From positions 1 to 40,098 of the forward strand of contig JBPCJI010000080.1 of the NCBI GenBank assembly GCA_051005475.1: DNA of 40,098 bases, read 5' to 3'. Positions 37,366 to 39,725 of the stretch are shown here, in pieces. The notes below the pieces were generated by a model, which was given only the letters and a program-made list of their open reading frames with translations, searched no databases and had not been told where the DNA came from. The stretch's first letter is position 1. Each line of letters starts with the position of its first letter. The stretch is from Thermoleophilaceae bacterium. GTDB taxonomy: Bacteria; Actinomycetota; Thermoleophilia; Solirubrobacterales; Thermoleophilaceae. A program made the position numbers and the translations under genes.

Positions 37366-38658
37366 TCACGGGCCTACCTCGGTGAGCGCATCACGGGCCG
37401 CGGCGACGGTGCGCTCCACGTGCTCGTCGGCGTGCGCGAGGGAGGGAAACCAGGCCTCATACTGCGAGGGCGGCAGGTAGAAGCCGCGCGCGAGCATCGC
37501 CCGGCAGAAGGCGGCGTGGAGATCGAGGTCGCACGCCCTGACGTCCTCGTAGGACGCCACCGGCCCCTCGCGGAAGAACAGCGTCAGCAGGCCGGTCGTC
37601 CACGCCACGTGCGCAGCCGTGCCGGCGTCCCTCGCCGCATCCCGCAGGCCCTCCGCGAGTGTCCGCGAGAGGGCGGTGAGACGGTCGTAGGCCGCGGCGT
37701 CGAGCAGCTCCAGGGTGGCCAGCCCGGCCGCGGTGGCGAGCGGGTTCCCCGCGAGGGTGCCGGCCTGGTAGATCGCGCCGGCCGGCGCGATCAGGTTCAT
37801 CAGCTCCGGGGGCCCGGCATAGGCCGCGGCGGGGAGGCCGCCGCCGATCACCTTCCCGAGCACCGTGAGGTCCGGCGTCACGGCCGCGCGTTCCTGGGCG
37901 CCCCCGCGGGAGACCCGAAAGCCCGAGATCACCTCATCGAAGACGAGCAGGGCGCCCGTGCGATCGGCCTCCCGGCGCAGGAAGGAGAGGAACCCCTCCG
38001 CGGGGGCCACGAGGCCCATGTTGGCCGGGTAGGGCTCGGCGAGGATCGCCGCCACCTCGTGCTCTGCCAGCACGCCCTCGACCGCCTCGCGGTCGTTCCA
38101 GGGAACGACGAGGGTTGCCGCGGCCTGCGCTGCGGGCACTCCCGGAGAGGCCGGGACGCCGGCCGTCGCCAGTCCCGACCCCGCCTCCGCCAGCAGCCCG
38201 TCCGCGTGCCCGTGATATGCGCCGGCGAACTTGAGCAGCTTCTCGCGGCCCGTGGCCGCCCGCGCCAGCCGGATCGCGCTCATCGCCGCCTCGGTGCCCG
38301 AGCTGACGAGCCGGACCATCCCGGCGCTCGGAACGCGGTCCACGACCTCGGCGGCGAGATCGACCTCCGCCTGCGTCGGCGCGCCGAAGCTGGTTCCGCG
38401 CGCGGCGGCGGCCGTGACCGCCTCGATCACGGCGGGGTGGGCGTGGCCTGCGATCAGCGGGCCCCAGGAGCACACCCAGTCCACGTAGCGGTTGCCATCG
38501 ACGTCCACCAGCTCCGCGCCGCTGCCCTCGGTCACGAAGATCGGGTCGCGCCCGATCGCGCCCATCGCGCGGACCGGCGAGTTCACGCCGCCGGGCAGGA
38601 GCTGGAGCGCTCGGGCGTAGAGCTCCTGCGAGCGGGCCCATGAAGGGCCCGCGCTCAC
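37366..38658 (-). CDS. hemL: Glutamate-1-semialdehyde 2,1-aminomutase
   Basis: I set the start at GTG 38658, overlapping the upstream stop (GTGA). The tracked ATG 38796 lies inside the upstream gene. Motifs are LLPGGVNSPVRA, DVDGNRYVDWVCSWGPLI, VFDEVISGFR and LGKVIGGGLP. Confidence 0.93.
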   Translation of the reverse strand: MSAGPSWARSQELYARALQLLPGGVNSPVRAMGAIGRDPIFVTEGSGAELVDVDGNRYVDWVCSWGPLIAGHAHPAVIEAVTAAAARGTSFGAPTQAEVDLAAEVVDRVPSAGMVRLVSSGTEAAMSAIRLARAATGREKLLKFAGAYHGHADGLLAEAGSGLATAGVPASPGVPAAQAAATLVVPWNDREAVEGVLAEHEVAAILAEPYPANMGLVAPAEGFLSFLRREADRTGALLVFDEVISGFRVSRGGAQERAAVTPDLTVLGKVIGGGLPAAAYAGPPELMNLIAPAGAIYQAGTLAGNPLATAAGLATLELLDAAAYDRLTALSRTLAEGLRDAARDAGTAAHVAWTTGLLTLFFREGPVASYEDVRACDLDLHAAFCRAMLARGFYLPPSQYEAWFPSLAHADEHVERTVAAARDALTEVGP

Positions 38659-39725
38659 GCGTGCTCTGCCTCCCAGCACCTGTGCGCGTCGGTGAAGTAG
38701 AGCAGGCGGATCTTCTTGAACTCGGTGGAGGAGTAGAGCGTGCGACGGTCCTCGATCCCGGACTCCTCGGCGATCGAGTCGAGGATCGCGTCGCACTCCC
38801 CCTTCGAGCGGCCGTGGGCCATCGTGAACACCGAGTAGGGCCAGTCCTCGTAGGTCGGGCGCTGGTAGCAGTGCGAGACCCCGCGGAAGGAGGCCATCAG
38901 CGGGGCGATCTCCATGATCCGGTCCTCGGGCACGTTCCAGACGCCCATCCCGTTGGCGGAGAAGCCCGCGCGGCGGTGAAAGAGGATGGCCGCCACGCGG
39001 CGCAGCGCCTTGCGCTCCTCCATCGAGCGCAGGTGCTCGAGCAGCGCCTCCTGCGGGATGCCGAGCTCGGCAGCCGCGGGGGCGTAGGGCTCGGGGATCA
39101 CCGGCATGTCTCCCTGGAGCACGCGGATGACGGCGATGTCGAGCTCCGACAGCTCGATCGGGTCAGGGTTCATAGGATCCTGGGCCTCGCCCGCGGCAGC
39201 GAGGTCCTTGGTGCCCTTCTCCATCTCGAGGTCCATCCTGATCTTGAACAGCTTGAGGGTGGGCAGCTGACGCACCGACTCGGCTCCCGTGAGCTCCTGG
39301 AGCACCGCGAGTGTTCCCTCCAGGCCGAGCTTCGAGCCGGGCTCGGTGGCGAGGGTGAACCACATGTTGAAGTCGTGGTTGCGCAGGTAGTTGTGGGAGA
39401 CGCCCGGGTGGCTGTTCACGATCTTCGCCGCGCGGTGGGGATTGTCGGCGTCGACCTTCGCCGCCACGAGCATCGACTGGTACCCGAGCACGCGCGTATC
39501 GAAGATCGGGGTCACCTGCCGCACGATCCGCTCGTCGAGCAGCCTCTGGACACGGCGCATGACCTCCTCCTCCCCGACCCCGGCCATGCCGGCGACCTGG
39601 GCGTAGGGCCGGGCGGCGAGCGGAAAGCTTCCCTGCATCAGGTTCAGCAGGCGCTTGTCGCGCTCGTCGAGCGGGACCGCGGCGCCGTCCCTGCGCGCGC
39701 GGACCTTCGGCACTACCGAAGCCAT
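38655..39725 (-). CDS. Fused siroheme decarboxylase (AhbA-AhbB / NirDL-type, two Lrp/AsnC-like modules)
   Basis: 356 aa with two tandem modules. Module 1 is [23 protein letters not shown]...[11 protein letters not shown]...[20 protein letters not shown]. Module 2 is [20 protein letters not shown]...[10 protein letters not shown]...[26 protein letters not shown]. These match the AhbA/AhbB (NirD/L/G/H) family signature. Confidence 0.8.

Follow-up and report, generated by a model that had tools for sequence, protein, structure and literature searches.

How does an actinobacterial lineage make heme when a gene for a predicted siroheme decarboxylase lies between two of its early tetrapyrrole genes? 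The question is raised by a 40,098-nt stretch of DNA (hereafter the window; contig C80, GenBank JBPCJI010000080.1, G+C content 70%) from the metagenome-assembled genome (MAG) of a Thermoleophilaceae bacterium (G000; 1.72 Mb in 229 contigs, 85% complete). The gene, ahbAB, encodes a single polypeptide, P0002. From the genes that are present and absent across relatives, we consider it probable that P0002 is a siroheme decarboxylase and that it performs the committed step of the lineage's only route to heme b, a hybrid route that would start from siroheme and end with ChdC. The genes and modules at the center of the analysis are:

38655..39725, minus strand: ahbAB, predicted fused siroheme decarboxylase (P0002), 356 aa (Pfam, NCBIfam, match to solved structures)

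39222..39659, minus strand: AhbA-like module, residues 23-168, with His111 of SHNY at 39393-39395 (NF040708)

38697..39131, minus strand: AhbB-like module, residues 199-343, with His285 of SHCY at 38871-38873 (best stretch of NF040707, 199-343; aligns with 4czd chain B)

39713..40096, minus strand: 3' part of hemB (porphobilinogen synthase), running off the window end (PF00490 ALAD, 160 bits)

37366..38658, minus strand: hemL (glutamate-1-semialdehyde 2,1-aminomutase), 430 aa, GTG start (TIGR00713, 547 bits)

The initial annotation, made from the sequence of the window, had placed a fused 356-aa AhbA-AhbB protein at 38655-39725 and left its strand, which is minus, unstated. Equivalog scores and structural alignment bear this assignment out, and both family motifs that it quoted are present in P0002 as written. 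Pfam detects two NirdL-like_HTH (PF22451) and two AsnC_trans_reg2 (PF17805) modules. The NCBIfam AhbA equivalog model (NF040708) reaches 256 bits at residues 23-168 (cut-off, 140), and the AhbB equivalog model (NF040707) 235 bits at residues 199-343 (cut-off, 125); when the protein is split, the AhbA model gives 191.7 bits for the N-terminal half versus 68.5 bits for the other half. The protein aligns end to end (residues 23-352; 259 bits, E = 4e-76) with Hydrogenobacter thermophilus NirDL (4ch7/4czc), and the Desulfovibrio desulfuricans proteins AhbA and AhbB (4czd/4un1) each align with one of its halves. His111 (SHNY) and His285 (SHCY) align with the histidines at 4ch7 chain positions 93 and 261. 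We take this pair to be the one called 'essential' by Haufschildt and colleagues. In both siroheme decarboxylases with solved structures, strand beta2 of either ferredoxin-like domain bears a histidine, and one of these residues binds siroheme (PMC4835899); the title of Haufschildt et al. 2014, as cited there, names two essential histidines and a NirDL crystallized with iron-uroporphyrin III. By these matches, P0002 is assigned as a full-length AhbA-AhbB fusion of the NirDL type, an ordinary member of a known family, and is predicted to convert siroheme to 12,18-didecarboxysiroheme.

P0002 resembles H. thermophilus NirDL in consisting of one chain with two modules, in the identical GVSHNY and GVSHCYQR motifs, and in the presence of both histidines. 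However, NirDL is named for heme d1 synthesis, whereas no cd1 nitrite reductase or NirJ, NirF or NirN accompanies P0002, the gene of which lies between hemB and hemL. The AhbA and AhbB proteins of D. desulfuricans and Methanosarcina barkeri (PMC3942049) share with P0002 the same predicted reaction, which first commits siroheme to heme b; in these anaerobes, they are two separate subunits accompanied by the radical S-adenosylmethionine (radical-SAM) proteins AhbC and AhbD, in contrast to the fused form found here without AhbC or AhbD.

The ahbAB gene is translationally coupled to both hemB and hemL. Direct reading of the junctions confirmed the overlaps described in the initial annotation: the ahbAB ATG at 39725 overlaps hemB by 13 nt, the hemB stop TAG being at 39713-39715, and the ahbAB stop TGA at 38655-38657 overlaps the hemL GTG at 38658 as GTGA. 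Both starts have a Shine-Dalgarno-like purine run ahead of them, AAGGA upstream of the ahbAB ATG and GGAGG 11 nt upstream of the hemL GTG. The third-codon-position G+C (GC3) of the ahbAB frame is 0.94, as in real genes of G000, and the hemB part also matches NF006762 (167 bits) at model positions 243-325. In a locus-conservation sample of 80 species-level loci, hemB, ahbAB and hemL are colinear in 77, the other three being cut by contig ends, and this order is common to all six families of the order Solirubrobacterales; within the genus, the ahbAB protein is 73-99% identical. The closest proteins and the 80 loci all come from Thermoleophilaceae or Solirubrobacterales MAGs, and the DNA runs that contain the stretch are labelled as soil, sediment or terrestrial metagenomes; among RNA runs, none is listed as containing it.

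The other routes to heme were sought in an order-level sample of 41 genomes, namely, G000 and 40 relatives from these six families. The AhbA model matches in 39 of the 41 genomes and exceeds its cut-off in 36. No credible match to UroD (PF01208) was found in the 41 genomes, with only two weak partial matches, and neither was any ferrochelatase CpfC (PF00762) or any CgoX (TIGR00562) above cut-off, the best CgoX match (62 bits) covering the FAD-binding end only. ChdC is present in 36 genomes. AhbC and AhbD are both strong in just two, G029 (504 and 388 bits) and G036 (467 and 232 bits), and the other genomes remain at the generic radical-SAM level on these models (126 bits at most). The absence of UroD, CgoX and CpfC leaves the lineage with no other way past uroporphyrinogen III, so that heme would be made via siroheme.

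AhbC (TIGR04546) has no match in G000 or in its single-contig (closed) relatives G005 and G015, which are 96-97% complete; in searches limited to E-values of 1e-5 and 1e-10, neither the AhbC nor the AhbD model matched in the two closed genomes, and there was at most one first-look candidate. In G000, the AhbD model (TIGR04545) reaches 18.8 bits, on a protein identified as BioB, the one individually identified among the four radical-SAM matches of this genome. The seven radical-SAM matches of G005 fall in six genes, encoding MiaB, BioB, LipA, a CofG/CofH fusion (two matches), RlmN and an Rv2578c-family protein, and none of them is NirJ-like. In sister lineages, these models detect AhbC with scores of 450-547 bits, so that their sensitivity appears adequate. 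The Rv2578c-family protein (L072:1192-3258, minus strand), which contains an intein and belongs to an uncharacterized family, is the sole radical-SAM gene product of G005 without an assigned role.

These results bear on several earlier proposals. The initial annotation had suggested that the organism makes heme via siroheme or runs two routes; the former is favored by the missing UroD, CgoX and CpfC, whereas in place of two routes the genes point to one hybrid route with a gap. Of the siroheme-dependent pathway that it invoked, the first step stands, and the canonical Ahb continuation does not, as AhbC and AhbD are missing from the genus, closed genomes included, and the last step falls to ChdC. 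It had also proposed a search for ahbC and ahbD versus hemE, hemY, hemH and hemQ, which gave UroD, CgoX and CpfC in 0/41 genomes, ChdC in 36/41 and AhbC/AhbD in 2/41, and had held that absence of ahbC and ahbD together with a complete coproporphyrin pathway would speak against its reading; only the former was found.

The ChdC of this lineage scores 180 bits on the Pfam model; with 113 bits, it falls short of the cut-off of the actinobacterial HemQ equivalog (235), and it scores 91 bits against Streptomyces coelicolor ChdC. Thermoleophilia ChdCs are 41-47% identical to ChdCs fused or adjacent to AhbAB in other phyla. By these comparisons, it is classified as a divergent subtype. The usual flanks of chdC in the relatives are a gene for an FprA-type reductase and a GT4/LPG-synthase gene. 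The FprA-type NADPH-ferredoxin reductase gene adjoins chdC in 9 of 14 loci (L048, L049, L171-L178), bolA and the genes for glutaredoxin and an Fe-S assembly protein often being close by, and this adjacency may hint at the oxidant or electron source of the ChdC subtype. The flavoprotein was also considered as a relic of CgoX and rejected, as it is an FprA orthologue (1lqt, 478 bits).

Genes for siroheme supply are found on contig C150 of G000, where a sirC/cysG-N-like gene, ccmA, ccmB, ccmC, hemA, hemC and a cobA-hemD fusion follow one another in one direction, an arrangement kept in five genomes. The 244-aa product of the first gene has NAD_binding_7, Sirohm_synth_M and CysG_dimeriser domains, i.e., is of the CysG-N/Met8 type, and would act as the chelatase; no CbiX was found. 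Only two tetrapyrrole methylases (TP_methylases) are present per genome, the second having about the score and size of RsmI, which argues that there is no cobalamin branch. Given the Rieske, cytochrome b6 and cytochrome c genes and the ccm genes, both heme b and heme c are needed. A gene of the SAM hydroxide adenosyltransferase (DUF62) family (G000:C150:4858-5418, minus strand) overlaps the end of the cobA-hemD fusion, as it does in all five genomes (orthologues L050, L187-L189); in G000, its product looks shorter, at 186 aa versus 267-281 aa.

Family membership of these genes and their presence or absence across relatives come directly from the searches, and the order of steps and the activities that we propose are predictions built on them. 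HemA, HemL, HemB and HemC would make the precursors, and the CobA-HemD fusion would yield precorrin-2, which the CysG-N/Met8-like dehydrogenase-chelatase would convert to siroheme. AhbAB would then take the C12 and C18 acetate carboxyls off siroheme to give 12,18-didecarboxysiroheme. An enzyme other than the radical-SAM AhbC would take off the two ring A/B acetates to give coproheme, from which ChdC (HemQ type) would produce heme b.

The closest precedent is Haloferax volcanii (PMC5746218, PMC8305020), the only experimentally studied AhbAB-ChdC hybrid that we found in the literature searched. It likewise uses the siroheme route with NirDL/NirGH (AhbAB) and ChdC for the last step under oxic conditions; AhbD serves without oxygen, and the ChdC fusion PitA with oxygen (PMC5746218, PMC8305020). 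However, H. volcanii has AhbC (HVO_1121) and AhbD, whereas the Thermoleophilaceae genus has neither, and ChdC here is not fused to an ABM domain. In the coproporphyrin-dependent pathway of Actinobacteria and Firmicutes, too, coproheme is an intermediate and the last enzyme belongs to the ChdC family, but UroD, CgoX and CpfC of that pathway were not found in the 41 genomes. No description of a siroheme route to heme without AhbC was found in the literature searched. Relative to that literature, what appears to be new is a bacterial hybrid of siroheme and ChdC, extending over a whole order of Actinomycetota and dispensing with AhbC; fused forms of AhbAB were already common.

The distribution of these genes was followed in a class-wide sample of 121 genomes, each at least 85% complete. 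AhbA exceeds its cut-off in families f1 (1/1), f3 (11/11), f4 (6/8), f7 (17/20), f11 (20/20) and f12 (1/1), and in none of the genomes of f8 (0/20), f9 (0/18) and f10 (0/20). In f11, AhbA is unfused, in frames of 150-240 aa, and its neighbors are AhbC (520-547 bits) and an AhbD-like gene; by its gene content, this is the canonical anaerobic ahb operon. An AhbC-like gene is retained in ten genomes with fused AhbAB. Some members of f8, f9 and f10, where AhbA is lacking, have only an AhbD-like radical-SAM gene that scores about 220 bits on the AhbC model. Judged by gene content, heme routes thus differ within the class, and the siroheme route is old in it, given that f11 has ahbA beside AhbC and AhbD. 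The occurrence of canonical, mixed and AhbC/AhbD-free forms fits a stepwise replacement of the oxygen-sensitive radical-SAM steps, which we regard as likely, the direction of change being presumed.

The only enzyme known for the conversion of didecarboxysiroheme to coproheme is AhbC, the mechanism of which is unresolved (PMC7242693, PMC13564367). The gene patterns lean, if not strongly, towards the view that aerobic bacteria with fused AhbAB and ChdC carry out this step with a non-radical-SAM enzyme distinct from AhbC, in Thermoleophilia and probably in the Chloroflexota and Armatimonadota with the operons described below. Near ahbAB, chdC and sirC-ccm-hemA in the six families, conserved neighbors comprised an ABC-2 transporter, YmdB, glycosyltransferases, BolA, glutaredoxin, an Fe-S assembly protein and DegV, and gave no clue to the missing enzyme. 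An MpaB/Lcp-like oxygenase beside sirC in G000 was set aside, as it adjoins sirC in only two of five genomes, and so was a MetE-like gene found beside sirC only in G000 among the five.

A lead came from other phyla. A representative search returned about 950 clusters of AhbAB-like proteins at E <=1e-30, among which are natural fusions of the ChdC-Rieske-AhbAB, AhbAB-SirC and HemA-AhbAB types (P0143, P0150, P0235, P0157, P0245). On the contig with the ChdC-Rieske-AhbAB fusion, genes for DUF1802 and an aldo-keto reductase (AKR) lie directly upstream. Four further homologues of this AKR were all found beside ChdC, ChdC-Rieske or the triple fusion, one of them in an operon with hemC, cobA-hemD and hemB; the DUF1802-AKR pair occurs in such company in four of five contexts (loci L190, L211-L215; Chloroflexota, Armatimonadota and metagenome contigs), and in L215 the AKR stands beside ChdC-Rieske without DUF1802. 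G000 has a homologue:

C93:16794-17930 (= L193:8795-9931), plus strand: AKR homologue, 378 aa

Copies of this 378-aa AKR, 63-84% identical, are present in 32 of the 41 genomes of the order (57-84% when the sister family is included), and in family f2 and genome G032 its place is taken by a 330-aa AKR with 50-51% identity to the operon-linked type. No AKR of either type was found in G029, which has AhbC and AhbD and no ChdC, or in G040, which has neither AhbAB nor ChdC. In the class-wide sample, an AKR match occurs in 37 of 37 genomes with fused AhbAB and in none of the 20 canonical f11 genomes, with essentially no match in f8-f10; as the genomes are kin, this co-occurrence may go back to few events. 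The operons of Chloroflexota and Armatimonadota (DUF1802-AKR-ChdC, with or without Rieske and AhbAB) resemble the Thermoleophilia in pairing AhbAB with this ChdC subtype (41-48% identity) and an AKR, whereas in Thermoleophilia the three genes are dispersed, ChdC lacks Rieske, and most families have the divergent 378-aa AKR. DUF1802 possibly helps the AKR outside Thermoleophilia. A 196-aa open reading frame (ORF) upstream of the AKR gene in the genus was examined and discarded: it is lipoprotein-like and has no similarity to DUF1802.

The AKR is the best lead for the conversion of didecarboxysiroheme to coproheme, as the enzyme or a part of it, but this assignment is tentative and rather doubtful. 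Alignment to 3n2t shows that the 378-aa AKR lacks the Asp and Lys of the catalytic tetrad, all four residues of which are present in the 330-aa type, and tblastn for DUF1802 in G000 returned nothing below E = 0.06. The AKR also co-occurs with an AhbC-like gene in ten genomes, which weighs against replacement of AhbC by the AKR; it could equally be a helper of the lineage's ChdC subtype. A metagenome scan with the Chloroflexota AKR yielded only two distant loci, and a homologue and protein atlas search with the 378-aa AKR only close Thermoleophilia relatives or generic AKR clusters.

Several observations weigh against the hybrid route as a whole. With no enzyme assigned to the step from didecarboxysiroheme to coproheme, the route is incomplete as written, and the activities of all its members are read from sequence. 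The counts come from related genomes and are not counts of independent events. Siroheme genes are in themselves no proof of a role in heme synthesis, since a siroheme-type sulfite/nitrite reductase, found in relatives, is a second use of siroheme. ChdC was not found in the 85%-complete G000 itself; an assembly gap is the likely and simplest explanation, as the GT4 gene that usually flanks chdC is cut by the end of a 3.3-kb contig (C136). Nor was ChdC found, by Pfam model or protein query, in G026, a genome with fused AhbAB and the AKR and a completeness score of 100%. Searches of it likewise gave no AhbC, AhbD, UroD or ferrochelatase, its best match to the AhbD model being generic (45 bits), and it is either an exception or another case of an assembly gap.

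Other explanations of the locus have to be set against the hybrid route. A canonical anaerobic Ahb pathway, the AhbC and AhbD of which were missed through incomplete MAGs or divergence, would accord with the 85% completeness of G000 and with the presence of both genes in two genomes of the order and one family of the class; it is highly unlikely, as the single-contig G005 and G015 have no match to either model, all but one of the six radical-SAM genes in G005 (the exception being the Rv2578c-family gene) have named functions unrelated to heme, and the models readily detect AhbC in sister lineages. That P0002 is a NirDL that helps supply a cd1 nitrite reductase with heme d1, as its best solved match might suggest, is hardly tenable: on the Cytochrom_D1 model (PF02239), which covers cd1 nitrite reductase (NirS), NirF and NirN, no score in the 41 genomes exceeds 26 bits, the closed genome has no NirJ-like radical-SAM protein, and the gene lies outside any nir cluster. 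No nirS/nirF/nirJ cluster, the context that the initial annotation had remarked was not visible, was found in the genome either, and the reading of heme d1 only fails. A role as an Lrp/AsnC-type regulator, or as a heme or siroheme sensor of the hem operon, is suggested by a fold derived from AsnC regulators, with HTH-like modules kept, and by public annotations, which often label this protein an AsnC regulator. The initial annotation had itself named an ordinary Lrp/AsnC regulator as the alternative, but regulator models remain far under cut-off (LrpA, 37.7 versus 250 bits; LysM, 32 versus 180), whereas both Ahb equivalogs pass, and P0002 has two modules where such regulators have a single HTH-plus-RAM module; together with the two retained siroheme-side histidines, the high identity across the genus and the fact that the lineage would have no heme route were this enzyme removed, this makes a regulator most improbable.

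The remaining two explanations concern the gap in the route. The substrate range of AhbAB might be shifted, such that an iron tetrapyrrole without the C2/C7 methyls is converted directly to coproheme, or ChdC might perform both ring A/B steps. Either would account for the absence of AhbC; the crystallization of NirDL with iron-uroporphyrin III, given in the title that PMC4835899 lists for Haufschildt et al. 2014, lends some color to the former, and the divergence of the lineage's ChdC, as well as the action of AhbC and ChdC on the same two rings (PMC7242693), to the latter. We nevertheless regard this as unlikely, given that the SUMT domain forms one protein with HemD, encoded in the cluster of sirC, hemA and hemC, so that methylated intermediates appear to be made, that no iron chelatase but the siroheme type was found, and that the active-site motifs are identical to those of NirDL. 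Finally, the pathway might be a remnant in cells that take up heme or coproheme, with AhbAB having no role in heme b synthesis, as the missing middle step and the additional lack of ChdC in G026 would allow. Such decay is very unlikely in view of the intact, highly conserved early genes, AhbAB and ChdC, syntenic over the whole order, of the translational coupling, and of the free-living habit of these soil bacteria, which have b- and c-type cytochromes and ccm genes. The hybrid siroheme-ChdC route thus remains the reading that we prefer.

The hem genes are part of a wider block conserved across the six families, which comprises an ABC-2 transporter; hemB, ahbAB and hemL; a small ORF; qcrABC, menG and a polyprenyl synthase gene; and dcd and tatAC. 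Two further features of the window belong to it:

36906..37343, minus strand: small conserved ORF between hemL and qcrA, 145 aa here, containing the LLAGDALYALGL stretch (ORF, no family match)

34562..36807, minus strand: Rieske, cytochrome b6, subunit IV-cytochrome c fusion (PF00355; PF00033; PF00032 + PF13442)

The small ORF has no Pfam or NCBIfam match; its family, 124-208 aa in length, is present in 14 of 16 loci across the order and in 71 of the 80 species-level loci. The LLAGDALYALGL stretch resembles polyprenyl diphosphate synthases, and menG and a polyprenyl synthase gene lie downstream, so the product may be the small subunit of a heteromeric polyprenyl (quinone side-chain) synthase. 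It was considered as the missing heme enzyme and dropped, the motif making the quinone side-chain subunit the more likely identity. The Rieske, b6 and subunit IV genes are co-oriented with the hem genes and encode heme b and heme c proteins; they form a Bacillus-style split b6c complex, in which cytochrome b6 has four helices and subunit IV carries a fused mono-heme cytochrome c. They are followed by menG, polyprenyl synthase, dcd and tatA/tatC, the block being syntenic across the whole order.

Thus, Actinomycetota are not uniformly coproporphyrin-dependent. Judged from their genomes, the Solirubrobacterales, which are common in soil metagenomes, would make heme by a route whose opening resembles the pathway of archaea and sulfate reducers and whose end resembles that of Gram-positive bacteria, and they lack the one known enzyme for the intervening step. 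Their class presents likely stages in the replacement of radical-SAM enzymes, from a canonical ahbCDAB family through mixed genomes to those free of AhbC and AhbD, and the search for the missing heme enzyme is narrowed to one testable candidate, the AKR. According to a 2026 review, the reported enzymes of the protoporphyrin-dependent (PPD), siroheme-dependent (AHB) and coproporphyrin-dependent (CPD) pathways cover heme synthesis in all known heme makers (PMC13564367). If didecarboxysiroheme is indeed converted to coproheme by a non-radical-SAM enzyme, heme synthesis would gain a fourth variant, one that tolerates oxygen and includes a new enzyme.

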